Notes under the pieces: model-generated
What the model saw: the letters and a program-made list of their open reading frames with translations, nothing else
Database searches by the model: none
Told to the model about the DNA's origin: nothing
Shown here: one piece after another, positions 1 to 61,253 of the stretch
Numbering within the stretch: the stretch's first letter is position 1
How the letters are laid out: every line of letters begins with the position of its first letter
Assembly: GCA_964398525.1 (NCBI GenBank)
Contig: CAYNMS010000002.1
Coordinates: 2,403 to 66,402 of the forward strand
Origin: an uncultured Pseudomonadales bacterium
GTDB lineage: Bacteria > Patescibacteriota > Microgenomatia > UBA1400 > CAYNFZ01
Length of the DNA: 64,000 nt
Direction of reading: 5' to 3'
Made by a program: the position numbers and the translations under genes

Positions 1-1111
1 TGTCGGCAAGTTTTTTAGCGGATCGGGCAACGGGAACGTTGAAGGCAATAATGACGGCGTCGGTAGTTTGGGCGAGGAGTACATCGGATTCGGTAACCGG
101 ACCGGTACCGGTTTTGATAAATTGGACTTCGTCGGCTAAGTTTTGACGGATGGCTTCGAGAGAGCCTCTGGTGTCGGCGTTTAAGATAATTTGAATGGAG
201 GCTGGAGTTTCTTCTTCGGAAAAAGCAGCCGGAGCAATAGGGGTTGAGGAGGGAATGTCGGCCTCAACTGCTTGGGAGTTAGTGGTGGTTTGAATATGTT
301 GAAGATTGTCGGGGGTGGTAAAGAGGGAGCCGGCTGATGGGACATCTGAGAGACCCAGGACTTCGACTGGGGTTGAGGGTCCGGCTTGATTAACTGGGCG
401 ACCGGCGCTATCGGATAGACGACGGGCTTTACCAGTCACGGGTGGGGTTTGGAGAGAGACGAGTTCATCGCGAAGTTTAAGAGTGCCTTGGCTGACTAAA
501 AGAGTGGCAACTGGGCCAAGATTTTTTCTCATTTGGCTTTCGATAACTACAGCCTCGAGAGGAGCGTTGGGGTCGGAGGTTAATTCTTCAATTTCGGCCA
601 AGGCGAGAATGGTGTCGAGAAGCTTGTCGATATTAGTGCCTTTGATGGCAGAAATTTCAACAACCGGAGTGTTACCGCCGTAGCCTTCGACGTTAATCCC
701 CTCTTCGACGAGTTGGGCTTTGGCCATTTCTGGGACGGCGCCTTTGACATCGATTTTGTTGATGGCCACAATAACGGGGACGCCTGACTCTTTGATGTGG
801 CGAATTGATTCTTTGGTTTGGGGCATGACGCCGTCGTCGGCGGCCACGACCAATACAACGATGTCGGTAACAGCGGCTCCCCGGGCTCGCATTTTGGAAA
901 AAGCGGCGTGACCCGGAGTATCAATAAAGGTGATGGGTTGGTCTCGATGGGTGATTTGATAGGCGCCAATTGCCTGAGTAATACCGCCGGCTTCTGAGGC
1001 AGTAAGGTTGGTGTGGCGGATATGATCCAGGAGAGTGGTTTTACCATGGTCGACATGACCCATGATGGTAACGACTGGTGGCTTGGTGATGGTAGCGGAT
1101 TTTTTGGCCAT
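1..1111 (-). CDS. infB: Translation initiation factor IF-2, 3' partial (runs off window start); protein begins directly at the G domain
   Basis: Minus-strand translation from ATG (cat at 1109-1111) gives [71 protein letters not shown], i.e. IF-2 G-domain motifs G1/G2/G3. The frame stays open to position 1. A TAA one codon upstream closes the frame, and the same TAA is the nusA stop. Not listed in the ORF track because it runs off the edge. Confidence 0.85.
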
Positions 1112-32367: not shown

Positions 32368-33981
32368 AACAGAATAAATGGAGTAAGAGGGAGACTCGAG
32401 TAGGAGAGGAAATTGGCTGAAGTAGCTGAGATTGATTTCAAATGAAGCGTGTTCGGAAGGGCCGATAACCACATAATCGATTGAGTAGTGGTCTAGGAGC
32501 AAGGAGGCCTGGCTGGAACCGGAGTAGATATTGGCGATGTCTGTTTCTCTGGTGGTGTAGTCGAGGCCATAAGTCCAGAGCCAACCACGGTAGCCCATGA
32601 GAATTTGTCTGCCGGTGAGGGTGGGGATAAAGTGATTGTGTTGGTCGCTGGTGAGAATAACTGAGTCGGGGGAGGTAAGTTCTCGGACTTTGGAGGCTAG
32701 GTCTAATTCTTCATTCGTAAACATGGGGGTTTGGAGCTTTTCAAAATCCAGAAGGCGAAGAGCGTCGAGAAAACCGGAGAAGGTGAAAACAAGGAAAAGG
32801 AGGCTGAAAGCGATTAAACCAAGGCGTTTGGCTTGAAGTAGACGAAAAAGAAGAGTGGTGGCAGGCAGACTAAAGGCAAGGTAAATCCAGGTGAAGATTT
32901 TGGAATTGTCCCAGTCGTAGGGTTGGAAAAGAATTAGGTTTGATAAAAAGAAGAGAAAATAGAAGGGCAAGAAGAAAAGCTTTTGGCGCGAGGGGAGAAA
33001 GAAGTAGCCAACAAAAGAGGCGGGGAGAAACAAACCCCAGTTGATTAACCAAAACCAAAACCAGTTGATGTCTTTGCTTTTAGCTAGCCAGCCAGGATAA
33101 AGGCGGAAAAACGATTCAGAAGTACTAGGAAAGATGAAATGAGTGGCTAGAGGATAAGCGACAGAAAGACTGATAAAGGCGGTGAGCATCCAGTAGGAAA
33201 AAGGGTGGCGTCTGAGAGTAAGGAGAAATATCCAAAGGGTTAAGATAGCCATGACTATGGCGGTGTGAGCGTGGATAATAGGAAGGGGGCCAAGGAGAAG
33301 ACCGAGGACGAGAAAATGACGGAGTTTGACTTTGGTGGCAAAAATGCGCCAGAGGAGAGTGAGGATGAGTAGACCAGTGATTAGCCCCAGAAGAAAGGCA
33401 CGTTGAGGCACGAGCTCGCCCGAGATGATGTTGATCCATTCGATGTAATGGGAACCAATGTGAGTGTATTCCTGAGGCAAATGGGTGATGGTGGTCAAAA
33501 AGCCAGTCTGGGCAACGTCCTGGAAGAAATAAATAAAACCCAAACCACCACTGAAGAACCATAAAAGAGAGGCAACGAGCGCGCGGGAAAGAGAGGAAAA
33601 TTGGGAGTATACCCAAGGCAGGAGAAATAAAAGAATGAGGCAGAGAAAACCTCCGAGAAAATTCCAGGCCAGATGATGGGGAAGACCTAGACGAAGAAGA
33701 TAGCCGCCAAGCATATCCGCGACAAAAGAATAAGAAAAAGGGTGGCCGTAAAAAAGAGGGTGATTCAGGGGAAAAGTCGAGCGGAAAGCAAAAGCGCTCA
33801 TGTAACTTAGGTGAACAGCGCCGTCTGCCCAACTGCCCACCCACCCAGCAACAATACCAGTTGGGGTGGAGACTAATTGCCGGCTCCAAAGAAGGAGAAA
33901 GTAAAGAGAGCCTATCAGGGAGTAAACTAGGAGAAAGAGTTTGGAGCGGGTAAAAGTAAACTTGAGGCGAAACTTAGTCAT
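32359..33981 (-). CDS. Large polytopic membrane protein, possible GT-C fold glycosyltransferase
   Basis: 540 aa, more than 12 hydrophobic segments, periplasmic-loop Asp residues. No firm family. Confidence 0.35.
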   Translation of the reverse strand: MTKFRLKFTFTRSKLFLLVYSLIGSLYFLLLWSRQLVSTPTGIVAGWVGSWADGAVHLSYMSAFAFRSTFPLNHPLFYGHPFSYSFVADMLGGYLLRLGLPHHLAWNFLGGFLCLILLFLLPWVYSQFSSLSRALVASLLWFFSGGLGFIYFFQDVAQTGFLTTITHLPQEYTHIGSHYIEWINIISGELVPQRAFLLGLITGLLILTLLWRIFATKVKLRHFLVLGLLLGPLPIIHAHTAIVMAILTLWIFLLTLRRHPFSYWMLTAFISLSVAYPLATHFIFPSTSESFFRLYPGWLAKSKDINWFWFWLINWGLFLPASFVGYFFLPSRQKLFFLPFYFLFFLSNLILFQPYDWDNSKIFTWIYLAFSLPATTLLFRLLQAKRLGLIAFSLLFLVFTFSGFLDALRLLDFEKLQTPMFTNEELDLASKVRELTSPDSVILTSDQHNHFIPTLTGRQILMGYRGWLWTYGLDYTTRETDIANIYSGSSQASLLLDHYSIDYVVIGPSEHASFEINLSYFSQFPLLLESPSYSIYSVSH

Positions 33982-34054
33982 TGTGATAGTATAGCCAATT
34001 GGAGTTGAGTCAAAAAGGGTCGTGTAAATGAGGTAAGTGAGATAGAATTTAGAA

Positions 34055-35308
34055 GTGAAAAAAAGGACAAAATTTTTACTGGGGTTAATTCTAGGGTTTG
34101 CTTTGGTAACAAGACTCTGGAACTTGAATTACCCGCAAAACTACTACTTTGACGAGGTTTATCATGCGTTTACGGCTGGAGCATATGCCCAAAATGACCC
34201 CAAAGGTTATGAATGGTGGCACACATCGGTGGTGGAGGGAACGGCTTATGAGTGGTTGCATCCACCTGTTTCTAAATTAATGATGGCGGTGTCGATATGG
34301 CTAATAGGGGATGAGAGTTTTGCGTGGAGATTTCCAGGAGCCTTGATGGGGGTAATAATGGTGGGAGTGTGCTTTTGGTTGGGGAAAGTTATTTTTGGGA
34401 GCAGAAGAGCAGGTTTGTGGGCGGGGGCAATTGCTAGTTTGGAAGGGTTACTTTTGGCTCAATCACGTATAGCCATGAATGATATTTATGTGACGACATG
34501 GATGTTGCTGGGGATAGGTTGGTATTGGAAATGGAGAAAAGAGGGTAGAAATAATTGGAAGGATTTGATGATATCAGCTGGGTGGTTGGGACTGGGGGTG
34601 GCAACTAAATGGTCGGGAGTATTTGCCCTAGGAACGGTGGGGTTATGGGAAATTATGGAGTTAATAGCAAATAAGGGTAAGCACTGGAGAAAATCGGTAG
34701 CTGGTGGGTTGATTTATTTGGTAGCAGCAGGGGGAATTTATATTGCTTCTTACAGCCAGTTTTGGTTACAGGGGCATACGTGGCAACAGTGGGTGGAACT
34801 GCATAAGCAGATTTGGTGGTATCAAACTAATTTGGAGGCAACTCATGCTTATCAAAGCACACCAATACAATGGTTATTGAATTTAAAACCGGTGTGGTAT
34901 TTTGTGGAATACAAAGAGAAGACTGTAGCCAATATCTATGCCCTAGCAAATCCAGCCATTGCCTGGGGAGGATTATTGGCGGCGGGATGGATGTTGTGGC
35001 AGGGGGTTAGGGCTAAAAAAAGAGAATACTTGTTTTGGTTGAGTTGTTATTTGTGGGTGTGGTTACCTTGGGTGGGTTCACCCAGAATAATGTTTTTTTA
35101 TCACTACACGCCGGCGATGGCATGGTTGAGTATTGGTATTGGGGAGAGTTTGGCCCGACTGGAAAAGACTAGTTGGGGGAAGTGGTTTGGGTTTACTTAC
35201 TTATTGGTGGTGATAGGTATGTTTGTTTTTTTCTGGCCGGTGTGGACTGGAGTGGCGGTACCAACAGAGTGGAGCAAGTGGTTCTTTTGGATATCAAGCT
35301 GGAAATAG
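34055..35308 (+). CDS. GT-C glycosyltransferase, protein O-mannosyltransferase/ArnT-like (PMT_2, GT39/83)
   Basis: YYFDEVYHAFTA DE motif in loop 1. 417 aa, ~11 TM. Confidence 0.7.
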   Translation: MKKRTKFLLGLILGFALVTRLWNLNYPQNYYFDEVYHAFTAGAYAQNDPKGYEWWHTSVVEGTAYEWLHPPVSKLMMAVSIWLIGDESFAWRFPGALMGVIMVGVCFWLGKVIFGSRRAGLWAGAIASLEGLLLAQSRIAMNDIYVTTWMLLGIGWYWKWRKEGRNNWKDLMISAGWLGLGVATKWSGVFALGTVGLWEIMELIANKGKHWRKSVAGGLIYLVAAGGIYIASYSQFWLQGHTWQQWVELHKQIWWYQTNLEATHAYQSTPIQWLLNLKPVWYFVEYKEKTVANIYALANPAIAWGGLLAAGWMLWQGVRAKKREYLFWLSCYLWVWLPWVGSPRIMFFYHYTPAMAWLSIGIGESLARLEKTSWGKWFGFTYLLVVIGMFVFFWPVWTGVAVPTEWSKWFFWISSWK

Positions 35309-35309
35309 G

Positions 35310-36179
35310 TTAGAGCAACAAAAGGCTTAAAGCGCCGACAACCAAAACGGCAAATCCGACTGAGAAGACTGTAAGAGTGGGAAAAGACGAGCCGGCTGTA
35401 GGTAGGTTGGGTGCGGGAGAGACTGAAGGTGAAGGCACAACTCCACCCGTGACTGGAGTGGAAGGGTTGGGGGTAGTACTGAGAGGAGTGGGTGTGGGTG
35501 AAGGAGTTGGGGCAGTTGGAGTAGGAGTGGGAGAGGGTGTAGGTGAAGGTGAGGGTGAAGGTGTGGGAGTGGGTTCGGGTCCACCTAAAGGCTGACAGGT
35601 AGCAGATTCTGGATAAGACTCAAGTCGACAGGTATCAGTTTGGGGGGAACAGAAGTAAGTTTGATCGGCGGTTTGACACTGCTCATCGGTGGTGCAAGGT
35701 GAGTCACAGGTGTATTCAACATCTTCCGGCTGACAATCAGATTGGTCCGGATAATCCGGATGTCGACAAGTGCCGGTGGTAGTAGAACAGGTATATTCTT
35801 GATCGGCGGTTTGACACTGCTCATTGGTGGTGCAAGGTGAGTCGCAGGTGTATTGGCAAAGACAATCTTGGGAAGCTGGACATTCAGGATTAACACAAAC
35901 CTCAAGATCTTGATTACAGACTAGACCAGTTCCACACTGATTGTTTGTTTGACAAGTGCCTTGGTAGCAGCTGAGAGGGTTAACAGTAAAACTAAAAGAG
36001 CAAGTTTCTGCCGCAGCTGGCCGGGATTGGGGAGCAGTGGGGGCTACAGAAGTGCTACCGCGAGACTTAAGAAAAAGGGCGACTCCAACTGCGGTGGCAG
36101 CGATAAAGACAATTGAAGTAATGATGACTAGTGAGATGGGCTTGGGTCGATGCATTAAAGTTGATCCCAGGCGGTACAT
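35310..36179 (-). CDS. Secreted/anchored Cys-rich modular protein with two 46-aa Cys repeats, a Pro/Thr/Ser linker and a C-terminal hydrophobic anchor
   Basis: N-terminal signal-anchor. Repeats YTCDSPCTT(N/D)EQCQTADQ.Y.C. PTPTPSPSPSPTPSPTPTP linker. C-terminal LTVFSVGFAVLVVGALSLLLL. Confidence 0.55.
   Translation of the reverse strand: MYRLGSTLMHRPKPISLVIITSIVFIAATAVGVALFLKSRGSTSVAPTAPQSRPAAAETCSFSFTVNPLSCYQGTCQTNNQCGTGLVCNQDLEVCVNPECPASQDCLCQYTCDSPCTTNEQCQTADQEYTCSTTTGTCRHPDYPDQSDCQPEDVEYTCDSPCTTDEQCQTADQTYFCSPQTDTCRLESYPESATCQPLGGPEPTPTPSPSPSPTPSPTPTPTAPTPSPTPTPLSTTPNPSTPVTGGVVPSPSVSPAPNLPTAGSSFPTLTVFSVGFAVLVVGALSLLLL
35661..35855. repeat. Tandem direct repeat (period 138 bp, 57-bp core 55/57 identical) inside the Cys-rich gene
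   Basis: ttgatcggcggtttgacactgctcatcggtggtgcaaggtgagtcacaggtgtatt at 35661 and the same with 2 mismatches at 35799. Confidence 0.8.
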
Positions 36180-37636
36180 TGTGGTTGGGCATCACATGCC
36201 TGGCACTGGACTTGGTATTGGCCAGGTTGTGTGACAAAAAGGTTGAGAGATAAATTGGGTTGAGATGAACTGACGCCGATGGTTTGCCAAGCTTGATCAT
36301 TGATGCGATAGCGAAAGTTGTAACTAGTAACTTGACTAATGCCAGCCCCTCCTGCAGTACAAGTGAAATTGACAGAATCACCGATTTGAGGGGATGGAAG
36401 AGAAGAGTTGAGGTTGGAACATACAAAAGATTCGGTTATTAAAGGGGTGGGGGTTGGTGTGGGTAAGGGAGTAGAGGGTGGGGTGGGCGAAGAAGGTGGT
36501 GGAGTAGGTTGGGAAGAATATACAGGTAAAGGGGTGGGGTAAGTTCCACCGACGGCAGGCTGGCCACAGGAGAGGTTGGGTTCACATTCACAATAGGTGA
36601 TGCCAGAGAGAACCAGTTCACCAGCGATGGAGTCGGACTGGATGCGGACACAATCCTGATAACAATTGGTTTTGGCATTTGAACCACAAGCCTCGTTGCC
36701 ACAGCCTATAAATACCCGATCACCTTCTTGGGAACAAGTTTGTTGGGAGGAGCTGATATAGCCACAGGCGTGCATGTTGACTTCAGTTCCCCACTGACCA
36801 AATTCATTACACATTCGTCCCATGCCATCCGTGGTACATTGGGCTTGTCCGGGGGAGCATTCTTGAGAAGAGGTGTTACCCGTACAGATGTTGGCACAAA
36901 CACTGGCGGCTTGAGAACCGGTGGTAGTGTTGGTGCACATTTGAAAATCGACGGAACCGTTGTTGTCATAATCACATTTTAGAAGGTAAAGACAACCCCC
37001 ACCGGCAGTATTGCCGGTGTCAACCCAACCATTGACGTTGGTGCAAGATGATGAAGGACTAGGGTTGGTGGTTGATGTTGGTCCTGTCCAACCTTCACAA
37101 CAGTGGAGCCCCCCACACACGTCCACAGGTCCGCCAGATTCAGATGCATGAGGACAGTCGCCACTGCCGGAGCCAGGGTTGGCACACCAGCTACAAGTGG
37201 GTCCTGAAGGGTTTGAGGGGGGTGGGGTGGGGTCTGGATTTGAAGTACCGCCAGGATTCCAACCGGTACAACAAGGCAGACCACCACAAACATCGACGCC
37301 GCCACCTGACTCCGGAGCGTGGCCGGTTGAAGCAAAACATTGATCTGCACCAGCACACCAACTACAAGATGGGGTGGTGGAGGCTTGTTGGCGAATATCT
37401 TGAGATTGTTGAACCAAGCGCAAGCCTACGACGCTACCAATTCCAAGCGTGAAGACTAGAAAGGTTGATAATAGAAGGTTTTTTTTAGGGTTAGGTTTGC
37501 CAAATCTTGAAGGCTTAGAAGAGTTTGGTGAATCAGAAGCAGCGTTTGGTGAGGGGCTTGAAGGTGGATTGAGGATTGGTTGACCAGGACGAGATGTCGG
37601 TGGGCGAAAAGTTGGAGTGGTTGGGTTTTGGTCCAT
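36155..37636 (-). CDS. Large Cys-rich surface protein: Pro-rich N-terminal tail, one TM, duplicated CSWCA...VDVCGGL.CC.GW modules, Ig-like C-terminus
   Basis: 493 aa. More than 40 Cys in the ectodomain. Two ~45-aa modules in tandem. PT linker. Overlaps the downstream gene by 25 nt. Confidence 0.55.
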   Translation of the reverse strand: MDQNPTTPTFRPPTSRPGQPILNPPSSPSPNAASDSPNSSKPSRFGKPNPKKNLLLSTFLVFTLGIGSVVGLRLVQQSQDIRQQASTTPSCSWCAGADQCFASTGHAPESGGGVDVCGGLPCCTGWNPGGTSNPDPTPPPSNPSGPTCSWCANPGSGSGDCPHASESGGPVDVCGGLHCCEGWTGPTSTTNPSPSSSCTNVNGWVDTGNTAGGGCLYLLKCDYDNNGSVDFQMCTNTTTGSQAASVCANICTGNTSSQECSPGQAQCTTDGMGRMCNEFGQWGTEVNMHACGYISSSQQTCSQEGDRVFIGCGNEACGSNAKTNCYQDCVRIQSDSIAGELVLSGITYCECEPNLSCGQPAVGGTYPTPLPVYSSQPTPPPSSPTPPSTPLPTPTPTPLITESFVCSNLNSSLPSPQIGDSVNFTCTAGGAGISQVTSYNFRYRINDQAWQTIGVSSSQPNLSLNLFVTQPGQYQVQCQACDAQPQCTAWDQL

Positions 37637-37639
37637 ACA

Positions 37640-39028
37640 TTACTTGGTGGAGCGGTGTCGCAAAAATAATCCAGCAAGAAGGGTGGAACTACCCAGGAAA
37701 AGAATGAGAAGTGTTTGACTAATATTGCCAGCCACAGGCACACCTCCCTTGGAAACAGGTTGTGTAGTTCTGCCGGAATCTGTGGCCACGGTGGCGGGGG
37801 TTGGAGAAGGAGTGAGGGTTGGAGTTGGAGAAAGAGTGGGCAGAGGAGTGGGGGTGGGAATTGGAGTGGGAATTGGAGTGGGGGTGGGGGTAAGTTGGCC
37901 CGAAGGGGAAGAGGTAAAGGAGGGAAGATTTGAGTCTTGAGCATAGACCGTGAAACTTCGGGTAAGGGTTTGTAAAAGTCCAGAAGTGTCGGTGTAGGTT
38001 AGAGTAATTGTGTGTTGGCCGGGTTCAAGATCTTGTGGGGGTGTCCAAGAGAAGTTGCCCTCTGAGTCAGAAGTAACTTCATCTTCGTAAGTAACAGGGG
38101 ATTCGACTTTGATTTGGAGGCGAGTATTGGCAGGTGCTTTTCCTTGGATTTCCGGACGCGAGGTATCTAGTTGTTGGCCATCGGAGGCGGGGTTTAATAA
38201 AATTACCGCAGCTTGACTGGCGGTTTCTGACTCTAGATTAGTTTCTGAGGTTGATTCTGGGCTAGGATCTGGGGTTGATGATCTTGAAAAATCAAAGTCT
38301 TGGCCTAAAACAATAGGAGGAACGGGTTGGTGGTTGGAAGTGTCGGTTTTCCCTGAGGTTTTGGTGGAGTCGGTACTAACGACATCGATGATGATGGGGG
38401 TGGTTTGATCATAGGAAATAAAGCCACTGAGATCGGCGGTGCGTATTGTAGAAAGAGGGAGTGCCCAAGAACCTGAAGCTTTGACAAGAGTGGAAATAGG
38501 GGTAGCGCCAGGCAGACGAATGTAGAGTATAGACCCCTCAGCTGGTGTTTGGGCGGGCGTGGTCACAGTCCCATAGATAGTTTCTGAGTCTGGAGCGTTA
38601 CCGAGAGATGCACCTGTAGTGATCTGATAGGGTTGGCCGTTTTGATCAAAAAGGTCTTGACTTCCAGAGCCAAGTTTAAAATAGTAAGTGGTAGTTGGTT
38701 TGAGATCAGAGATAGAGATATGATGAGTGACGAAAGAGCCGGTCTGACCAGAGAGACGATCTCTTTCATCGGGGACGGTAGTGTCCAACTCTGTGGAAGT
38801 GCCGTAACGAACAAAACCAGTGGTTGGCTGATCCGTTACCCAGGAAACGGTAAACGAACGATCAGTAACGTTGGTTATTTGAACTTGTTTTGGGGTGGCT
38901 TCTGGGGCGGCTCGGGGTAAGAAATTGGTTTGTCTACCAACCAAAAAGACACCGACGCCAGCACCGATAAACAAGATTAGGAGGGCAAAAATGGTAGGTA
39001 TTTGTTTCTTGAGCAGGGTTTTGTCCAT
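37640..39028 (-). CDS. Surface protein with N-terminal signal-anchor, fibronectin type III-like domain, PT-rich stalk and C-terminal TM anchor (start at internal Met)
   Basis: FTVSWVTDQPTTGFVRYGTS FN3-like (purple-acid-phosphatase N-domain type). C-terminal LLILFLGSSTLLAGLFLRHRSTK. Confidence 0.55.
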   Translation of the reverse strand: MDKTLLKKQIPTIFALLILFIGAGVGVFLVGRQTNFLPRAAPEATPKQVQITNVTDRSFTVSWVTDQPTTGFVRYGTSTELDTTVPDERDRLSGQTGSFVTHHISISDLKPTTTYYFKLGSGSQDLFDQNGQPYQITTGASLGNAPDSETIYGTVTTPAQTPAEGSILYIRLPGATPISTLVKASGSWALPLSTIRTADLSGFISYDQTTPIIIDVVSTDSTKTSGKTDTSNHQPVPPIVLGQDFDFSRSSTPDPSPESTSETNLESETASQAAVILLNPASDGQQLDTSRPEIQGKAPANTRLQIKVESPVTYEDEVTSDSEGNFSWTPPQDLEPGQHTITLTYTDTSGLLQTLTRSFTVYAQDSNLPSFTSSPSGQLTPTPTPIPTPIPTPTPLPTLSPTPTLTPSPTPATVATDSGRTTQPVSKGGVPVAGNISQTLLILFLGSSTLLAGLFLRHRSTK

Positions 39029-39123
39029 AAATTCAGGATGACACGAAGTTATCACCATGAGAGAACTCAGGGCTGACTCCATGGTAACGGCTCAAGAGAA
39101 TTAACTCAATATGTCAAAATGTA

Positions 39124-39519
39124 TCATTGCCCCAAAAAAGGATTATTTCCAGGCGAAGCTGGTGGTGGGGTTGGGGTTGGGGTGGTGGCGGAGGGGGAGG
39201 CGGTTAGACCGGCTGATGGAGTGGCGGGGGGAAGGGTTGACTGGATGTCTGGATTGGGCAGAGTGGAGGCCCGGAGTTTGAACGCCTCCAACTCTTGACT
39301 GGTAAAAGAAAGGCGATTGCCTAAGGCTCCGGCTTGATCAATGTAGAGCTCGGAAGTTATAGGTTCCACATTTAAAGAAATTTGTTGAGAAGAATCTTGC
39401 TGGTTATAGACCCAAAATATTTCGAATGCGATCCAAATGATGACGACCAAAAAACTGATTAAGGCGAGTTTGAAGAGATTTTGTTTTAATTTTAGTCTCG
39501 GGTGGGAGGATAATTTCAT
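39124..39519 (-). CDS. Small bitopic membrane protein with Pro/Thr-rich C-terminus (possible PilP-like accessory component)
   Basis: 131 aa, single N-terminal TM. ATGA overlap with the upstream PilO-like gene. Confidence 0.4.
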   Translation of the reverse strand: MKLSSHPRLKLKQNLFKLALISFLVVIIWIAFEIFWVYNQQDSSQQISLNVEPITSELYIDQAGALGNRLSFTSQELEAFKLRASTLPNPDIQSTLPPATPSAGLTASPSATTPTPTPPPASPGNNPFLGQ

Positions 39520-40178
39520 AGGTCTGGAGTGGTAACGATTGACTCTTTGGAGTAATAAACGTTAAAGGTAACGGTCATGGAAATGGCAGGATCAACTTCT
39601 TCATCTTCGAGTGAAGGCTGACTGAATGATACTGAATCGATCAAAACAACCCGTTGAAGATTGTTTAGATCAGCTAGCAACTGTTTGAGTTGTGGTAATT
39701 CCCCTTTTGATGTCATGCGGATTAAAAGGCTGGAAAATGGGGAAGCCTCTGCTTCTGGATTGGTGCCTACTAAAGTGAGTGGGTCGATGCGAAGACTCAC
39801 AAGCCGAGTGCTGTGAAGGGAGTTGATGTATTCAAGTTGAAGTAAAAGTTGATCAAGTTGGTGTTCGGGAGGGATGGCTAGATCGAAGTTAAGAAGGGTA
39901 GTTTGGTGTTGATTAAATTGAGCTTGGGCAGTATTTAGGGCATTGAGTTTGGTATCAACTTTTTTTTCTAATTCCTCTTTTTCTTTTATTTCACCCACTA
40001 GGCTGGATACAGTAGAAAGAGTGGGGCGAATCGCGGCAAAACCGAAAAAACTGATTGTTAGAATGGTTAAAATTAAGGCAGATGAGGTTTGGGCAATGGG
40101 TTTATGATAAGCCCGGCGGATTGAATGGTAGTAGCTTTTGTAATTTAACTGATTGGTTTGGTTGAGGGGTTGATACAT
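39516..40178 (-). CDS. PilO-like type IV pilus inner-membrane assembly protein
   Basis: Cytoplasmic N-terminus, one TM, coiled coil, C-terminal LQRVVLIDSVSFS region similar in architecture to PilO. Confidence 0.45.
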   Translation of the reverse strand: MYQPLNQTNQLNYKSYYHSIRRAYHKPIAQTSSALILTILTISFFGFAAIRPTLSTVSSLVGEIKEKEELEKKVDTKLNALNTAQAQFNQHQTTLLNFDLAIPPEHQLDQLLLQLEYINSLHSTRLVSLRIDPLTLVGTNPEAEASPFSSLLIRMTSKGELPQLKQLLADLNNLQRVVLIDSVSFSQPSLEDEEVDPAISMTVTFNVYYSKESIVTTPDL

Positions 40179-40181
40179 GAA

Positions 40182-40784
40182 TTATTCCTCGAATTCAGAG
40201 CTAGATTCTGTTTTTGGTTTGGGAGCGGGGGTGGAGACGCCGGCATATTTAGCGCTAACGATGAAGCTTATACCAGTGTCTTTGTCGCTAGTGTTAATTT
40301 TATCCAAAAGTACATCATCGAACATGGCTTCACCTTTGAGGGTGTCGACGAAAACAGACAGGGACTGAGAAGAGTAGGCTTTGGCGATCATGACAAAGCG
40401 ATCGTTGCGAGTGGAGATATCTTCAAAGACGATATCACTGGGGGTATTTTCTGTCACAAAGTTGACTACTTGAATTAGTTGAGGTTTGTCATCAAGTGTT
40501 TGAAGGAACTCGGCTTTTTTTTGAATGGTGCGTACATTGGTTTCGAGTTGTTGGTATGACTGAAGGAGGGCTTGGTTGGAAAGGATGGAGTTATTGAGGT
40601 CAGTAAGTTTGCGGTCGAGAGTAAAACGAGACAAGAAGGTGATGATGACCACCATTTCGGTAAAAACTACGATATAACGGCCAATGGAAAGAGCCCAGGT
40701 GAGAAATTTGCCTATAGGACTTTCGGCAAAAGGATCCTTGGGGAGAAGGTTGACATCAATGGGTTTTGAGCGTCGGGCAGGCAC
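40182..40784 (-). CDS. PilN-like type IV pilus assembly protein
   Basis: N-terminal KPIDVNLLPKD (INLLP motif), single TM, ~200 aa. Confidence 0.5.
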   Translation of the reverse strand: MPARRSKPIDVNLLPKDPFAESPIGKFLTWALSIGRYIVVFTEMVVIITFLSRFTLDRKLTDLNNSILSNQALLQSYQQLETNVRTIQKKAEFLQTLDDKPQLIQVVNFVTENTPSDIVFEDISTRNDRFVMIAKAYSSQSLSVFVDTLKGEAMFDDVLLDKINTSDKDTGISFIVSAKYAGVSTPAPKPKTESSSEFEE

Positions 40785-40864
40785 TTAGTTTGGCAATAAT
40801 GTCTAATTACCCCAGTTAGGGGCTAATACCAATACCATAGCAGGTTTTGAGGCAAGGAACAATC

Positions 40865-41176
40865 TTAAGACTTGACGGATTTGGTGGGTCGGGAAGTAGC
40901 TTTTTGGGAGGATTTTTTGGGTTTAGCTGAATCAGGACTGGAAGTAGTGGTTAATTTGGATAGGCGAGATTTGATGCGAGCTGCTTTGTGAGGGTGAATA
41001 AGATTTTTTTTAGCACTCCGGTCGATAGCAGAAAAAGCTTCGCTTAAATTTGACTGGTTGGGGTTTTGTTCGATACTTTTGATAGCTAATTTGAATTTGT
41101 CTTTAGTGCGTCGATTGACGAGGGTGCGACGTTGATCTTTTCTGAGAGCTCGTTTGGCTGATGAAGTAATAGGCAT
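40865..41176 (-). CDS. rpsT: 30S ribosomal protein S20 (with basic C-terminal extension)
   Basis: MPITSSAKRALRKDQRRTLVNRRTKDKFKLAIK matches the S20 N-terminus. Confidence 0.75.
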   Translation of the reverse strand: MPITSSAKRALRKDQRRTLVNRRTKDKFKLAIKSIEQNPNQSNLSEAFSAIDRSAKKNLIHPHKAARIKSRLSKLTTTSSPDSAKPKKSSQKATSRPTKSVKS

Positions 41177-41295
41177 AGATGATTAATTTTATTTGATGAC
41201 TTAAAATTGACTGGTAAACCAGGTTTGGATTATATCACCTTAAGATAAATAGGAGAAGGGGTTTGTAAAAAGGTAGGGTAGAAACTAAAGGAATT

Positions 41296-41856
41296 ATGAT
41301 AAAAAATAAAAACTTTGGAATACTTAAGGGTGAAGAATGGTTAGGTGAAAAATTCGTTCAGTGTAGGTTTGAAGGTTTGATGGAAATGTGTGTGTTTGAT
41401 GGGTGTGAGTTTGTTGAGTGTAATTTTTCTGAGGCAAAACTGCAAAATGTGGGACTGCTTGAATGCAAACTGGCTGAAAGTAAATTGGCCTACATTAATT
41501 TTGCTGAGACTTTAATAAAAAGTTGTGAATTTATCAAAGCGATTATGCCGGGTTGTGTCTTTGAAAAATTTGAGTCAGAAAGTAAGACTCAAAGAAAAAG
41601 ACTTAATTTAAAAGGTTGTAGATTTGATCAAACTGATTTAAAGAAAACCTTGTTTATAAAAGCTAATTTGACTGAAGTGAGTTTTAAGGGAGCAAATTTA
41701 GAGAGAGTTGGATTTGAAAACTGTAATTTGAGTGGGGCGGATTTTAGAGAGGCTTTACTGGGTGGAATTAACTTAGTAAACACAACTGTTGATGGAGCAA
41801 AAATAGATGTGGCCGGCTGTATAGCCTTGGCACAAAACCAAGGTTTTAGCTTGTAA
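41296..41856 (+). CDS. Pentapeptide-repeat protein
   Basis: Tandem A(D/N)LxG-type quintets through most of the 186 aa. Confidence 0.65.
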   Translation: MIKNKNFGILKGEEWLGEKFVQCRFEGLMEMCVFDGCEFVECNFSEAKLQNVGLLECKLAESKLAYINFAETLIKSCEFIKAIMPGCVFEKFESESKTQRKRLNLKGCRFDQTDLKKTLFIKANLTEVSFKGANLERVGFENCNLSGADFREALLGGINLVNTTVDGAKIDVAGCIALAQNQGFSL

Positions 41857-41891: not shown

Positions 41892-42431
41892 TTGATGGAA
41901 TGGTGGCCATGGATAATTGTGAGATTATTGGCTCCACTACTGATTTGGAAGTGGCAGTTTGTGGGAGCGTTGGTCGCAATTGTGGCTGACAACCTGGATG
42001 TAGTGGTGTGGGACGTGATGGGAGTGGAGAAGTTGAGCCAATATTACAACCCAATTGATAAAGCTTTGGATATGTGGATTTATTTGGTAGCAGGAATGGT
42101 GGTTTTAACCAAGTGGAAAAACAAGAGAGCAAAAAAAGCAGGAGTAGTGTTGTTGGTTTGGCGGTTGTTGGGGTTTTTAATTTATGAGTTAACCGGATGG
42201 CGTTATCTGCTGTTTATCTTTCCTAATTTGTTTTGGACATTCTTTGTGGTCTATACAGGCTGGATGGCAATGACAAAAAAGGATCCAATAAATTCAAGTA
42301 GGAGGCTTGGACTACTGTTGTTGGTGTTGGCAATACCAAAACTAGCACAGGAATATCTATTTCATGTAGTGGAATTTGATTTATATGGATTATTTAATGA
42401 TGTGGTTGGCTGGGTGGCTAATTTGGTTTAA
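41892..42431 (+). CDS. Hypothetical 5-TM membrane protein
   Basis: 179 aa. Trp-rich hydrophobic segments. Confidence 0.4.
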   Translation: MMEWWPWIIVRLLAPLLIWKWQFVGALVAIVADNLDVVVWDVMGVEKLSQYYNPIDKALDMWIYLVAGMVVLTKWKNKRAKKAGVVLLVWRLLGFLIYELTGWRYLLFIFPNLFWTFFVVYTGWMAMTKKDPINSSRRLGLLLLVLAIPKLAQEYLFHVVEFDLYGLFNDVVGWVANLV

Positions 42432-45258: not shown

Positions 45259-45987
45259 CTAGCGAGAAGGCTTAAAGAGAAGCTGAGAAAAGAAACGGGA
45301 GAGGAGGTCGATGACAACAACGATGAAACTAAACCAGAGAGTGGTGATGACGAAAAGTTTTTTTCCAGCGGGGAGAAACATAAAAATAAAGAAAGAGGCG
45401 ATAGGGAGAATAAAAAGATAGCGAATTAAATCTTGGCGGGAAGTGGGGAAAGGGGAGTTGATGAGACTAACGGCTTCGACCATAAAAATGGTGAAGGATT
45501 GAAGGAGGTTTAGGAATAGATTGGTGTGGGTTAAATCAAACCTACCCAAAAAGGTTAAGTTGAAGGGTTGGGCAATAGCGGGCATAAAATCGTAGAGCAA
45601 ATGAAGGTCGGCACCCAAGAGGCCGGTGGTGAAGATACGATAAAGAATGAAGAAAATAATCATTTGAATGGCGAAATTGACCGCTTCGGAGATTAACACA
45701 CGACGATTGGAGCGGAAAATAAGCCTAACGGCTGTTTTTTGCCGATGAGGTTGATTTTCAAATTCATTTTTGGCTTTGAGGATTGATTGTTGGATTTCGT
45801 GACGTTCACTTTTTGAGCGCATACCGGCTAGGGTCAAAGGCAGGAGAAGGATGCGGATAGTTAAAGTAAAAAGAATGACGGCAATGCCCATATCAGCAGA
45901 GATAAAAGGGAGACGCTCGGTTAAATAATAGAAAGCAACCAAGAGGTTGAAGAAAGGCTGGTAAATTAGGGTAGTAAATAGGGGCAT
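45259..45987 (-). CDS. YidC/Oxa1-family membrane insertase, short paralog
   Basis: GIAVILFTLTIRILLLPLT...helix-hairpin...NFAIQMIIFFILYRIF. 242 aa. Confidence 0.65.
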   Translation of the reverse strand: MPLFTTLIYQPFFNLLVAFYYLTERLPFISADMGIAVILFTLTIRILLLPLTLAGMRSKSERHEIQQSILKAKNEFENQPHRQKTAVRLIFRSNRRVLISEAVNFAIQMIIFFILYRIFTTGLLGADLHLLYDFMPAIAQPFNLTFLGRFDLTHTNLFLNLLQSFTIFMVEAVSLINSPFPTSRQDLIRYLFILPIASFFIFMFLPAGKKLFVITTLWFSFIVVVIDLLSRFFSQLLFKPSR

Positions 45988-56352: not shown

Positions 56353-59300
56353 TCACTGGCGAGGACTAAACTCAAACTGGAAGCTTTGATCTGAGGAAAT
56401 TGTTTGAGAATATTTTATTAAGTCCTGAGTTGAAAACTGGATTGGTAGAGAAGTTGGATAATAGTTTGGAGGTGGAATAATTTGAAGATTGAAAATGTAA
56501 GGGGCAACACCTGGTTGATAATCGTAGAAATAGTTTAAGTTAAAATTGGTTTTTAAAAGAGATAAGGGTAGATGATAATCAACAACAAGAGTTGAAGTGG
56601 TTGAAGGTGAGACATCTAAGAGAAGACCTAAAACTAAGAAATTGTGTTGAATGCTGGTGTCGTATTGGTCTATTTTTAGAAGGGTCTCACCAACTTTTAC
56701 AGTATTAATTTGAGCAGATTGAGGCAAGTAAAGCCTGAGGTAATTTTTATAACTGCCTAAAGGCCAATTTGCCGAATCGGCGGAGTTGGTGAAATTAATT
56801 TGAAGAGTCTCCCCCACTTGGTTGGGTTGGGAAAAATCCAGGAGATGGCTGACCTGGCGATTAATGAAGGGGTTGATTTTGTTAACACCCACATTGGCTT
56901 CGACGAGCGAAAAATGAGTAGAGTGACAAGGCTCAGACAAACAGTGGTTGGGTGTAAGTGGGTTGGTGAAGTGGGTTTGATTCAGTGACTGATTGCTTTC
57001 TGGTTTTAAGGGGTAAAGGGTGAGGGGTTGTTGGGGAAGGGTTTGCAGAAGAGCTTGGGAGAGAAGGGAATAATTGGTCTGGGGTGATGACAGGTTGGAG
57101 AATAGTTGTTGAAAAAGAAGGGTAAGAAAATCTGATTGTGCCTGGTCGGCTGAATCGACCAGGTGGTTTCTTTGGAGGGAAAGGTAATTTTGTGAATTAA
57201 CCGGCTGAGAAATTGAAGGGGGGGTAAGAGGTCCAGTGATGTCGAGCAGAGGAGTAAATAGGTTGGAGTTTAGAAGGAGAATATAATCGACATTAAAGTT
57301 GGTTTGCTTTTGATAAAACCAAGCAATTCGTTTGGCAGTGGTGGCAGTATCCGGATCCCAGTTTACATCTCTTAAAAACCAACTTGATTCACCCAAAAAT
57401 TGTTTGACTGCCAGTGGGGGTTCGACGTGTCCCAAAAGTTTGTTGTCCAGAGAAGAGACGTCTCCGATCTCGACCGAGATGAGTTTGCCTTGATTGAGAG
57501 TAAGATCGGCGTAGGTGGTAATAAAGCCGCCAGTGGGACGAAGCTCGGAAGTGTCTTGGACTAGAACAAGTATTCGCTGAGGTGTAGAGGAGGAGAAAAT
57601 CGGGCCGAATTGTGTAAAAAGCTGGTGTTGGGAAAATAGGGCGGACTTGACATGGGTGAGTTTGGACGAGGCTTGGTCGAGGTTCAAACTCGACAAAAAT
57701 GATGACTCCCCTACTTCTAAGAATTGTTTTTGGTGAGCTTCGAGTTGGGAGATGGAACGAAAGGCTTTGAGTGAGTCTGTGGTGGCTTTGGTTAAATAAC
57801 TGCTTTCAAGGTTTGTGTTTGGATCAAAGAGGGCTTGGAGTAAAGATCCGGTTGAGATTTGAGCCTGTGCCAAGTCGTTTAAACTACTGGAAAATGAATG
57901 GGTGTAATTTAGTTGAGTTTGAAATGAGTGGGCAGTTTGTTGACCAAACACCATGGATACGGGTGATTGAATGACGTTGAAGGCTAACCTAAGTGTATTT
58001 AAAGTTGGATTAAGAAACGAAGTGTGGCTGAGGATTTCTTGTGGTGGAGAAAATATTAGTTCGGGAAGAACACGAAGTTTTTGAGTAAAAATAAAAAGTG
58101 CAGTTAACACAATTAAAACTAAGGCAGATAGTGTCCCCAAAAACGCCACGACTCGACGACGGGGGTTTTTGGGTTTGATCGAAGGAAAATTAAAGCGCCG
58201 AGATTTTTTGGGGTTGGAGGTTACGCCAAGGGATTGGAGGGTGAATTGTTTGTGATCTTGGTTGGTGAAGGAAGTGAGAGGGGGGGTGGGTGGTTTAAGG
58301 TTAGAGGGTGTTTCAGGGTTTGGTTGGAGACTAATTTTTTGATTGTTGGGGGGTGAGGTGAAAATGAGATGGTTTGGGTCTGTTTTTTTGAGGGTGACAG
58401 GTTGGGTGACAATTGGATTCGGGGGTGGGGTGGGTGATGATGGTTGTTTCTTTGAATGGTTGGTGGAAATGGACTCTGATTTGTGCCGAGTTTCCTGTGA
58501 AAATCCCAACTGAGGATGGGCTTTGTACCAAGAAACGGTTTCAGATAAGTGGGTAGAAATGTCAGTGGGAGGAAGCCACGACAATTGCTGCCAGGTAGCT
58601 TGAATTTGCTGCCATAATTCTGGATGATCTTGATAATTAAATTTTGAAGCAGAAAGTGAAGGAGAGGGGGGAGAAACTTCAGTTATTTGTTGGAGCTTTG
58701 AGACAAGATCACGTACCAATAGAGGTTGACCACCAAGTTGAAAAATTTTGCCAACAGAATCTGAACTAAGCAGGCTTTTGACAATGGCTTGGGTGGCGGA
58801 GGCTAAATGAAGTGGGTAGATAGTGGTATCTAAAGAAGGATAATCTAAAAGGTCTGGTGCCAGAGTGGATAGAAAAATTGGAGTGAGAGGATTATTGGTC
58901 TGTGAGACTACAGCTCGCCCAAAAAGATGGTTGGTGACAATGAAGCGGAGATTTTGTTGATGATTGACGAGCCGAGAAGAGATAAATGTTTGAAGACGAT
59001 CGAAGTCAGATTCTTGATCTGAATCAGGTAGGGGAGGGGGGGAAATAATGGCAAGTTTGGCGGAAATGGGGAAAAGACCAAAAAAGCGATCGAGTGATTC
59101 AAAATCGGGATGTTGAGGAGAAAAAACAAAAAAACCATAGTGGGGTGTTTGGGTGGTGTCGGTGATGGAGGTAAGGTGGGTGGTTTCTGGCAAATCTATG
59201 ATTTGATCAAAAATGTGGGTGTCTAAAAAATCCGATTTGGGTCCGACAAGAGTAACACCAAGCCCTCGAGACAACAGATCACGGGCAAGGAATAATCCAA

Positions 59301-59382
59301 GATTGTCGGTATTGCCGGTAATTAATGCGGTAATGGTTTGAGTAAGGGTTTCAACCTGGACAGATTGGTTAGCCATAGACAA
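56353..59382 (-). CDS. Large (1009 aa) fusion protein: N-terminal NAD(P)-binding epimerase-like Rossmann domain, Pro-rich linker, single TM, ~580-aa extracytoplasmic domain
   Basis: ITALITGNTDNLGLFLARDLLSRGLGVTLVG (Rossmann). SPTPPPNP linker. VVAFLGTLSALVLIVLTALFIF TM. Confidence 0.5.
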   Translation of the reverse strand: MSMANQSVQVETLTQTITALITGNTDNLGLFLARDLLSRGLGVTLVGPKSDFLDTHIFDQIIDLPETTHLTSITDTTQTPHYGFFVFSPQHPDFESLDRFFGLFPISAKLAIISPPPLPDSDQESDFDRLQTFISSRLVNHQQNLRFIVTNHLFGRAVVSQTNNPLTPIFLSTLAPDLLDYPSLDTTIYPLHLASATQAIVKSLLSSDSVGKIFQLGGQPLLVRDLVSKLQQITEVSPPSPSLSASKFNYQDHPELWQQIQATWQQLSWLPPTDISTHLSETVSWYKAHPQLGFSQETRHKSESISTNHSKKQPSSPTPPPNPIVTQPVTLKKTDPNHLIFTSPPNNQKISLQPNPETPSNLKPPTPPLTSFTNQDHKQFTLQSLGVTSNPKKSRRFNFPSIKPKNPRRRVVAFLGTLSALVLIVLTALFIFTQKLRVLPELIFSPPQEILSHTSFLNPTLNTLRLAFNVIQSPVSMVFGQQTAHSFQTQLNYTHSFSSSLNDLAQAQISTGSLLQALFDPNTNLESSYLTKATTDSLKAFRSISQLEAHQKQFLEVGESSFLSSLNLDQASSKLTHVKSALFSQHQLFTQFGPIFSSSTPQRILVLVQDTSELRPTGGFITTYADLTLNQGKLISVEIGDVSSLDNKLLGHVEPPLAVKQFLGESSWFLRDVNWDPDTATTAKRIAWFYQKQTNFNVDYILLLNSNLFTPLLDITGPLTPPSISQPVNSQNYLSLQRNHLVDSADQAQSDFLTLLFQQLFSNLSSPQTNYSLLSQALLQTLPQQPLTLYPLKPESNQSLNQTHFTNPLTPNHCLSEPCHSTHFSLVEANVGVNKINPFINRQVSHLLDFSQPNQVGETLQINFTNSADSANWPLGSYKNYLRLYLPQSAQINTVKVGETLLKIDQYDTSIQHNFLVLGLLLDVSPSTTSTLVVDYHLPLSLLKTNFNLNYFYDYQPGVAPYIFNLQIIPPPNYYPTSLPIQFSTQDLIKYSQTISSDQSFQFEFSPRQ

Positions 59383-60503: not shown

Positions 60504-61253
60504 CTACTGATTAACAATAAGGCCAAAACGATTAAGGTGGGGTTTCAAACCGCCCCAACCGGAAACAAAGTATTGTTGAATGAGACTAAAGAGGGTGGAG
60601 ACAACCCAATAGAGGGCTAGACCTGAGGGGAAGGCGCGAGCGATGAAGAAAGTAAAAACAGGCATGACATACATCATTTGAGACTGCATGGTTTGGGCCA
60701 TATCAGTGAGATCTTCGGCTTTTTTGTCGTCTTTTTTAGTTTTAGTTTGGGCGGCAAGTTTGGTTTCAGCAGTGGTGCTGGTAGCGGGGGCGAGCATGAG
60801 GCCTAGAAGAAATTGGGATAAACCTGCGAGAACTGGAAGCACAAACGTGGAGTCGGGTTGATTGAGTTGGAGCCAGAGGAAATTAAGATTGGCTCCCGGT
60901 GTGTCGGAAGTGAGAGAACTGGATAAAACTTGATAAAAGATGATGAACAGACCAATTTGAACCAGTTGAGGTAAGCAGCCGCCTAGAGGATTAATTTTGT
61001 GTTCTTGATAAAGCTCAAGTTGTTTTTGAGACAGAAGTTTTTTGTCGTTGCCGTATTTTTCTTTAAGTTTGTCTAGTTCTGGTTTGAGGCTAGACATTTT
61101 TTGAGTGGAACGGAGTGAGGGTAGGGTAAGGGGGATAAGACCCAGACGGATAACCAGAGTGACGGCAATGATGGCTAGACCGTAGTTGTTACCTAGCAGA
61201 TTGGCGGTGACTTCGAGAATTTGGGAAAAGAATTGATTAACAAAAGTAAACAT
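60504..61253 (-). CDS. yidC: Membrane protein insertase YidC (short Gram-positive-type)
   Basis: GLAIIAVTLVIRLGLIPLT...coiled hairpin...NPLGGCLPQLVQIGLFIIFY. Confidence 0.85.
   Translation of the reverse strand: MFTFVNQFFSQILEVTANLLGNNYGLAIIAVTLVIRLGLIPLTLPSLRSTQKMSSLKPELDKLKEKYGNDKKLLSQKQLELYQEHKINPLGGCLPQLVQIGLFIIFYQVLSSSLTSDTPGANLNFLWLQLNQPDSTFVLPVLAGLSQFLLGLMLAPATSTTAETKLAAQTKTKKDDKKAEDLTDMAQTMQSQMMYVMPVFTFFIARAFPSGLALYWVVSTLFSLIQQYFVSGWGGLKPHLNRFGLIVNQ

Follow-up and report, generated by a model that had tools for sequence, protein, structure and literature searches.

A pilN-pilO pair separated from pilM in a conserved Microgenomates gene cassette with uncharacterised envelope and surface proteins

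The 64-kb stretch of DNA analysed here (the window, 64,000 nucleotides of contig CAYNMS010000002.1), from an uncultured Microgenomates bacterium of the UBA1400 lineage, carries on its minus strand, between positions 35310 and 40784, a cassette of six closely packed genes. These are pilN and pilO, a gene for a small bitopic membrane protein, a gene for a protein with FN3 and Big_13 domains, and two genes for Cys-rich proteins, the 493-residue protein Cys493 and the product of the last gene. What is new in this arrangement is that pilN-pilO is split from pilM and forms part of a conserved Microgenomates cassette together with uncharacterised envelope and surface proteins. An earlier note, made from the letters of the window, had not recognised the arrangement as a described system, and indeed no description of pilN-pilO joined to FN3 and Cys-rich genes was found in the literature searched.

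Type IV pili (T4P) are thought to be central to the way in which bacteria of the candidate phyla radiation (CPR) attach to their hosts and live on them. CPR bacteria lack PilP and PilQ, and no other protein is known to take the pilus through their unusual envelope. Across hundreds of contigs from Microgenomates pilN-pilO, apart from pilM and the motor, is locked to the small protein and to a putatively wall-anchored strut, and these cassette neighbours are concrete candidates for the missing envelope parts of CPR pili. In addition, the hypervariable, disulfide-rich proteins with sorting-like signals encoded at the end of the cassette are candidate host-attachment molecules, and the N- and C-terminal motifs that they have in common may define new sorting signals.

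PilN, PilO and the four-gene core

The first two genes of the cassette encode true homologues of PilN and PilO. PilN scored 28.7 bits against Pfam PF05137 (gathering cut-off 22.8) and PilO 28.9 bits against PF04350 (cut-off 22), T2SSM_b being also above its cut-off for the latter. In the PDB profile search, the PilN-family profile matched Myxococcus xanthus PilN in 3jc8 (E=1.1e-6), and the PilO-family profile matched 3jc8 PilO (2.1e-12), Pseudomonas 2rjz (5.7e-9) and 5uvr (1.1e-5). In PilN a short cytoplasmic N-terminus leads into a single transmembrane (TM) helix, which is followed by a long coiled coil and then by a ferredoxin-like domain, and the AlphaFold2 model of PilN (predicted local distance difference test score, pLDDT, 83) consists of a helix spanning residues 23-98 followed by an αββαββ domain. 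Foldseek related this model to PulL/GspL, Thermus PilN (4bhq), XcpY, EpsL and PilO, and for the C-terminal domain the closest superposition was with the periplasmic domain of PulL/GspL (target-based TM-score 0.73). The PilN-like and PilO-like calls made earlier were thus borne out by Pfam cut-offs, PDB profile matches and the fold of the PilN model, and the profile searches placed the two small proteins in these families instead of in unrelated ones. A GspM identity for PilO was not supported, since the NCBIfam equivalog NF040576 gave 31.8 bits, below its cut-off of 60.

Residues N12 and L13 of the PilN (V/I)NLLP motif vary little or not at all among 25-28 family members whose overall identity ranges from 27 to 61%. 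PilM binds a highly conserved N-terminal motif of PilN, which is seated in a PilM pocket (PMC5805733), and from its sequence (V/I)NLLP is taken to be that conserved PilM-binding peptide.

The core formed by pilN, pilO, the small gene and the FN3 gene is almost invariant in Microgenomates. Species-representative genomes were scanned with a PilN alignment and 80 loci of the 202 relatives found were kept, the counts for genome loci being based on our own ORF (open reading frame) calls and hidden Markov models (HMMs) applied to 84 non-redundant loci. For the converse test, a scan of metagenomes with a 14-sequence FN3 alignment supplied 80 loci centred on FN3-family genes, and 170 loci (L001-L170) were ORF-called in all. 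Because a word-indexed homologue search with PilO gave 3 matches, the families were gathered from the fetched loci with their own HMMs. The pilO gene directly followed pilN in 79/79 genome loci, an FN3-family gene lay within four genes after pilN/pilO in 67/70, and the small-protein family was found in 65/70. In the reverse direction, PilN and PilO were encoded upstream of FN3 in 50 of the 51 metagenome loci, and the small gene was present in 49 of the 51. The core stays linked even between lineages whose PilO sequences share only about 25% identity. At 46% PilO identity, one relative has kept the order rpsT-pilN-pilO-small gene-FN3 gene, followed by a large Cys-rich gene, and sibling contigs carry the same six genes. 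Moreover, the divergent FN3 homologues located on long contigs all come after pilN, pilO and the small gene despite the change of flanks, which include smpB in L006 and, in L008, a gene with a Metallophos domain. Where informative, the record titles among the PilN relatives name Pacebacteria, Microgenomates, Woesebacteria, Shapirobacteria and Cerribacteria. The conservation of gene order that the earlier note had envisaged for all six genes is therefore found for the four-gene core, in both directions of the test, and not for genes 5 and 6, which are variable.

The cassette is located within a syntenic stretch of housekeeping genes (murJ, rpsT, tpiA, uvrD). In the window rpsT stands upstream of pilN, and rpsT or murJ does so in most fetched loci; among the genome loci, MurJ was encoded upstream of the cassette in 69/78 and ribosomal protein S20 in 54/78. 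The gene of ~561 amino acids (aa) found upstream of pilN in most loci was considered as PilB or PilM and rejected, because it is MurJ.

The six ORFs of the cluster proposed by the earlier note were all found in the ORF list of the window, co-directional and at the positions then given (Table 1). A stop codon TAA, three nucleotides (nt) and an ATG make up both the pilN/pilO and the FN3/Cys493 junctions, while pilO overlaps the small gene within ATGA and the Cys493 gene overlaps the last gene within TAATG. Because of the latter overlap the last gene probably starts at 36155 (281 aa) and not at 36179, and gene callers put its start at the site equivalent to 36155 on sibling contigs. The widest gap, from the small gene to the FN3 gene, measures 41 nt if the ATG at 39082 is used; the ATG at 39028, which agrees with the family consensus MxxxxxxKxIPT, would make it 95 nt. 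The short gaps and overlaps formerly described throughout the cassette hold for four junctions and fail at this one. From the spacing, a single transcript for the six genes is plausible, and the ATGA overlap suggests translational coupling between pilO and the small gene. The promoter formerly placed at 40785-40864 was not recovered, as a scan of this interval gave no promoter-like site, and in a scan of 33900-41400 neither promoters nor terminators rose above shuffled expectation.

Table 1. Coordinates of the cassette, of motifs and domains of its products, and of the two flanking genes (positions in the window)
Feature	Positions	Strand	Remarks
pilN	40182..40784	-	200 aa, GTG start; Pfam PF05137
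VNLLP motif, PilN residues 11-15	40740..40754	-	signature of the putative PilM-binding peptide
pilO	39516..40178	-	220 aa; Pfam PilO and T2SSM_b
Small bitopic protein, PilP position	39124..39519	-	131 aa; no match in Pfam, NCBIfam or PDB profile search
FN3/Big_13 protein, putative strut	37640..39028	-	462 aa from ATG 39028; ORF reaches 39082
FN3-protein C-terminal sorting-like signal	37643..37741	-	VPVAG, hydrophobic helix, RHRSTK
Cys493	36155..37636	-	35 Cys; Pro/Thr-rich N-terminus, TM helix, Cys-rich ectodomain
Cys493 juxtamembrane motif QQSQDIRQQA	37382..37411	-	outer side of TM helix
Cys493 C-terminal Ig-like domain, conserved	about 36158-36454	-	
Last gene (gene 6)	35310..36155	-	281 aa, 21 Cys; LPTAG end
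Last-gene LPTAG and hydrophobic C-terminus	about 35313-35405	-	
PMT-family (GT-C) glycosyltransferase	34055..35308	+	convergent; Pfam PMT, PMT_4TMC, PMT_2
rpsT (S20)	40865..41176	-	TIGR00029; co-directional, 80 nt upstream of pilN

Candidate envelope partners and the variable Cys-rich tail

A conserved Trp within the TM helix, the motif P(L/I)xPxLD...L..R and a disordered, variable tail rich in Pro and Thr are common to the small-protein family, whose smallest members have 60-69 aa. The protein of the window lacks both the lipobox and the β-domain of PilP and does not match PilP. Its tail differs by a four-residue TPTP insertion between the window (39124-39519, 131 aa) and L002:9653-10060 (135 aa), and this difference between otherwise identical sibling contigs is within-population variation in repeat length.

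The fourth protein of the cassette has Pur_ac_phosph_N/fn3 and Big_13 domains in Pfam and no Secretin domain there that would identify it as PilQ. It is composed of an N-terminal TM helix, the sequence FLPRAAPE, three β-sandwich domains, which are also the content of its AlphaFold2 model (pLDDT 82), a disordered Pro/Thr-rich linker and a C-terminal TM anchor. More than 235 homologues were found; where a source is named, it is Woesebacteria, Pacebacteria or Patescibacteria. The family C-terminus combines [VIL..]Px[SAT]G with a hydrophobic stretch in 94/127 members, 85 of these 94 having also a basic tail, and canonical LPPTG or LPQTG is seen in a few members. A scan for the sortase catalytic motif gave no TLxTC-type ORF in the window, and none lies in the cassette or its flanks. 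As to the C-terminal hydrophobic anchors attributed earlier to all the surface proteins, they are present in the FN3 protein and in the last protein, and absent from Cys493. In three Paceibacterota-labelled loci (L044:11648-14654, L065:11646-14324 and L080:11701-14572), arrays of T4SS_pilin genes replace the FN3 gene after pilN, pilO and the small gene; in L044 and L080 the upstream place of murJ is occupied by a gene for an extracytoplasmic function (ECF)-type sigma factor.

Cys493 and the last protein have no family match in Pfam or NCBIfam. From N- to C-terminus, Cys493 comprises a Pro/Thr-rich cytoplasmic segment, a TM helix, the sequence QQSQDIRQQAS, a variable Cys-rich ectodomain and an Ig-like domain. 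An exhaustive HMMER search with this protein returned 170 representative clusters among 1.84 billion at E<=1e-3, of which 3 at E<=1e-30, most matches covering only residues ~375-493 (the last ~110) and lying at the C-terminus of proteins of 300-950 aa; positional homologues occur in L006, L007, L010 and other loci. Because these matches are few and mostly C-terminal, genes 5 and 6 are best described as positional families with conserved ends and fast-changing middles. The two Cys-rich proteins are thus not the fixed components that had been supposed, that is, conserved orthologues, and the idea of cargo-like partners is retained only in the sense of locus-specific families that share N- and C-terminal signals.

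The gene directly after FN3 encodes an N-terminal TM helix in 70/101 cases. The motif TM...Q(D/E)(I/L)RxxA was found in 31 of the 101 genes at this position (+1) and in 17/59 at the following one (+2), against 6 of 746 background ORFs. With the strict regular expression, QQSQDIRQQA of Cys493 is the sole match in the 64 kb, and in the fetched loci 9/12 and 40/42 of the strict matches fell at one of these two positions behind FN3. The juxtamembrane R-x(1,2)-A-[AS] corresponds to no canonical signal peptidase I site and to no prepilin site, and the motif, nearly confined to genes after FN3, may constitute a new sorting or cleavage signal. The form QxQ(D/E)(I/L)RxxA(S/A) follows the TM helix in the window (37382-37411), in L005, L006, L013, L020, L094 and in others, and R-x-A-A strings akin to it are seen in the FN3 family (FLPRAxPE) and in the gene-6 family (SRPxAAE). 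In many Pacebacteria (L015, L017, L020, L023, L026, L027, L033 and L069, from about 13.5 kb onward) a giant protein follows FN3, with 1,969 to >2,340 aa running past the locus end and an N-terminus formed by a TM helix and QQDIRQQAS.

The genes at +2 are distinguished by a median Cys content of 4.5%, compared with 0.4% in the 746 background ORFs, and by an LPx(A/T)G motif with a hydrophobic C-terminus in 27/49 complete cases versus 1/746 in the background, LPEAG being the commonest form. The last protein of the window is organised as a TM helix, 'APTAPQSRPAAAE', CSFSF, three Cys modules, a Pro/Thr-rich linker and LPTAG with a hydrophobic C-terminus. Its family at +2 has in common APTAP...(S/T)xP, a C.(L/F)(S/E)F strand, Pro/Thr-rich linkers, the Cys module C.D.C...C...C.NP.C...C.C and the end ELP(E/K/Q/T)AG..PT. 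followed by a hydrophobic stretch. A class-III signal (G|(F/M)TLxE) had no regular-expression match in genes 3-6, which were accordingly rejected as pilins or pseudopilins; the same expression did find a prepilin in L095.

Relation to the type IV pilus and rival explanations

As the earlier note had stated for pilM, pilB, pilC, pilQ and a canonical prepilin, the window encodes no pilM, pilB, pilC, pilT, pilD, secretin or class-III prepilin, as judged by reading the translations, by motif scans and by Pfam on the ORFs of unclear function. A pilM gene upstream of pilN was absent from the window and from every fetched locus, and no locus has pilM, pilB, pilC or a pilin beside pilN. The L095 prepilin (MKSNTKGFTLIELL..., 3-266, minus strand), which is canonical and the only class-III pilin in the fetched loci, lies ~3.3 kb upstream of the cassette at the edge of a Woesebacteria-like contig and served as positive control for the regular expression; its absence from L094 and L097, which are sibling contigs, suggests that pilin content varies between strains.

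For Ca. Chazhemtobacterium aquaticus Ch65, a relative with a complete genome and the strand composition of the window, pilins, PilD, PilB, PilT, PilC and PilM are reported at a single locus, PilN and PilO not being mentioned, and a sortase is reported too (PMC7143001). Surveys of CPR bacteria show that PilB/T, PilC, PilM, PilN, PilO and PilD are widespread (PMC6744442, PMC8672522), that PilQ is absent and that sortase is near-ubiquitous in Microgenomates (PMC6744442). Given the conserved (V/I)NLLP and the pilus loci of relatives, PilN-PilO is here likely to be the pilus alignment pair, encoded apart from pilM. The idea of a minimal PilN/PilO platform devoid of a pilus machine, put forward in the earlier note, is not supported, in view of the (V/I)NLLP kept by PilN, the separate pilus locus of Ch65 (PMC7143001) and the pilin near the L095 cassette.

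With the PilMNOP(Q) systems of Pseudomonas, Myxococcus and Thermus the cassette shares PilN and PilO alike in sequence, topology and fold, the common order pilN then pilO and the common (V/I)NLLP. A membrane-anchored protein with a disordered region after pilO recalls PilP, and a large envelope protein coming next recalls PilQ. In contrast to canonical pilMNOPQ, pilM is not adjacent, Cys-rich surface genes stand at the end and the cell has probably no outer membrane; gene 3 differs from PilP in the features noted above, and the product of gene 4 is not a secretin like PilQ but a stalk anchored by a TM helix, with three β-sandwiches and a C-terminus of sorting-like type. Saccharibacteria TM7x belongs to the same radiation, and PilN and PilO are weak-scoring yet real homologues. 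The pili of TM7x drive episymbiosis, and there pilM-pilN-pilO lies with pilB, pilT, pilC, pilD and pilins in one locus (PMC12206443), whereas in the window pilN-pilO stands apart from such genes and is linked to those of the FN3 and Cys-rich proteins. The TM7x table (PMC12206443, supplementary table 3) skips TM7x_00430, TXSScan position 77, between pilO1 (00425) and pilB1 (00435); the skipped tag implies that an unassigned ORF probably lies there, and this ORF may correspond to the small protein. Likeness to type II secretion systems comes from the superposition of the PilN domain on PulL/GspL, the PilO matches to T2SSM_b and GspM profiles and a bitopic partner with β-domains reminiscent of GspC, but the cassette lacks the GspL cytoplasmic domain, GspD, GspE, GspF and pseudopilins.

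The surface proteins also resemble the sortase-anchored LPXTG/MSCRAMM-like proteins of Gram-positive bacteria in their N-terminal hydrophobic segment, tandem Ig-like/FN3 or Cys modules, Pro/Thr-rich linker and C-terminal xPxxG with a helix. They depart from them in that the motifs are variants, the last protein has no basic tail, the operon and the window have no sortase gene, and their N-terminal helices, accompanied by a conserved juxtamembrane motif, resemble anchors and not ordinary signal peptides. Sortase-assembled pili of Gram-positive bacteria have a pilus-specific sortase in the operon and CnaA/CnaB-type isopeptide-bonded pilins; such a pilus was rejected for the cassette, as sortase is absent from it and its flanks, and in place of such pilin domains it has FN3, Big_13 and Cys knots.

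The preferred reading, to which an even chance is given, is that the detached pilN-pilO pair is part of the Microgenomates T4P alignment complex and is co-transcribed with lineage-specific envelope partners. In this model, PilN-PilO dimers would tether PilM to the membrane around a PilC/motor assembly encoded elsewhere, and the small bitopic protein, in PilP position, would probably pack against PilN/PilO. The FN3/Big_13 protein, in PilQ position, would be held in the membrane by its N-terminal helix, with its C-terminal (V/I/L)Px(S/A/T)G processed by a sortase at the wall end, and could thus act, in a cell without outer membrane, as a three-β-sandwich strut or cage between the wall and the membrane platform. 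The disulfide-rich, Pro/Thr-linked proteins of the next one or two genes would probably be displayed as adhesins at or near the same site.

Several observations weigh against this preferred reading. For the small protein, the FN3 protein and the Cys-rich proteins, a tie to the pilus is inferred from sequence and gene linkage, and the presence of PilM, PilB/PilT, PilC, PilD and pilins elsewhere in this genome from relatives; a Walker A motif scan gave no T4P ATPase in the 170 ORF-called loci, nor was a pilin found beside the cassette in any of them. Foldseek retrieved generic FN3 arrays and adhesin stalks with the FN3 model, which was therefore rejected as PilP, GspC or secretin-like. The C-terminal signals are mostly (V/I)PxSG or LPxAG and not canonical LPXTG, that of the last protein is not followed by a basic tail, and the cell-wall anchor HMMs of NCBIfam gave no match at E<=1. 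Because of the housekeeping synteny, part of the conservation of gene order may be inherited and not selected. Finally, the arrays that take the place of FN3 in L044, L065 and L080, made of small two-TM PF18895 proteins of VirB2/TrbC-like type, are left unexplained by the model.

A first rival explanation, considered unlikely, is that PilN/PilO serve the pilus and that the small, FN3 and Cys-rich proteins are ordinary wall-anchored surface proteins, which share a transcript or the murJ-rpsT housekeeping neighbourhood with PilN/PilO and no functional tie. It fits the large-scale synteny of many loci (HrcA-GrpE-DnaK, LepA, MurJ, S20 ... TIM, UvrD), the generic adhesin-stalk look of the FN3 model and the great variation of genes 5 and 6. 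However, the four-gene core is intact where the flanks change (L006, L008), the two-way linkage reaches 96-98% although PilO identity is about 25%, the pilO/small-gene overlap suggests translational coupling, and the N-terminal motif is nearly confined to the genes right after FN3. A second proposal, that of the earlier note, is a self-contained PilN/PilO platform that is independent of any pilus motor and assembles or displays the Cys-rich and FN3 adhesins. The missing pilM, pilB, pilC or pilin genes beside pilN in the window and fetched loci (the L095 pilin being ~3.3 kb off), the tight linkage to cargo-like genes with locus-specific signals and the three loci that couple PilN, PilO and the small protein to other surface subunits, the T4SS_pilin arrays, speak in its favour; it is nevertheless judged improbable, as PilN (V/I)NLLP is under strong constraint, the full pilus loci of relatives include PilM (PMC7143001, PMC6744442, PMC8672522) and PilN/PilO alone would have neither an energy source nor a known secretion function.

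PilN/PilO-like proteins could also have been recruited to wall biogenesis, linking surface proteins to nascent peptidoglycan together with MurJ and sortase substrates. The murJ gene is directly upstream and co-directional in 69/78 loci, the FN3 and last-gene proteins have sortase-like signals, and LytR-CpsA-Psr, PMT_2, DUF2298, Wzy_C and FemAB genes are often nearby. Sortases use lipid II as acceptor and MurJ is the lipid II flippase. Against such a role, the murJ of the window is 30 kb away (8808-10478) with the cassette unchanged, PilN/PilO have no precedent in wall synthesis and the conserved (V/I)NLLP points to a pilus; this explanation, too, is judged improbable. A bolder reading, advanced tentatively and with a low probability, is that PilN, PilO, the small protein and the FN3 protein form an undescribed Microgenomates-wide envelope platform, either a PilP/PilQ-equivalent pilus conduit or a sorting station for Cys-rich adhesins. 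As a conduit it would take the T4P through the wall of cells without outer membrane, and as a sorting station it would read TM...Q(D/E)(I/L)RxxA and pass the hypervariable adhesins to sortase-like anchoring; the same proposal would include the replacement of FN3 by VirB2-like pilin arrays in some lineages.

Genomic surroundings

The convergent gene downstream of the cassette belongs to the PMT family, with 85.2 bits for PF02366 and 54.2 bits for PMT_4TMC in Pfam, both above cut-off; the NCBIfam equivalog score of 62.5 against a cut-off of 800 supports family membership only. A PMT homologue was found within nine genes downstream in 3/45 loci. On this count the gene was rejected as part of a conserved unit and is a lineage-specific neighbour, contrary to its inclusion in the system by the earlier note. 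The enzyme may O-glycosylate the Pro/Thr-rich linkers in the lineage of the window and, in the model preferred above, may in this way modify the Cys-rich surface proteins.

The window also includes dnaJ, dnaK, grpE, hrcA, lepA, murJ, groES/EL, two yidC genes, dnaA, several tRNA synthetase genes, uvrD and tpiA. One strand contains 30.3% G and 15.8% C throughout, and the GC skew ranges from +0.2 to +0.46 in nearly every 2-kb bin, regardless of gene strand, without change of sign up to dnaA (62042-63427) or the window end. The same whole-chromosome G/C disparity has been described for Ca. Chazhemtobacterium aquaticus Ch65, UBA1400 relatives, Collierbacteria and Beckwithbacteria (PMC7143001), and by this composition the window belongs in the order UBA1400 or close to it. 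Many cassette-bearing public records (e.g. L011-L014, L028 and L047) are titled Pseudomonadales, Gammaproteobacteria, Limisphaerales, Lentimicrobiaceae or TM6, and the cassette-bearing CP011212.1 is labelled TM6, yet is placed in UBA1400/PJMF01 (PMC7143001); the implausible labels look like taxonomic errors.

Beside rpsT, a plus-strand gene (41296-41856) encodes a pentapeptide-repeat protein whose similarity to Qnr, MfpA and the Hailong HalA effector stays below threshold, next to a gene (41892-42431) for a 179-aa membrane protein without family match. Two paralogues of YidC/60KD_IMP-like insertases are encoded on the minus strand within 15 kb (45259-45987 and 60504-61253), the first of them ~4.5 kb upstream of the cassette, by a Band_7 gene and groES/groEL. 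Another minus-strand gene (56353-59382), near origin-proximal genes, encodes a DUF4012-domain protein of 1,009 aa with a Pro/Thr-rich region before a TM helix.

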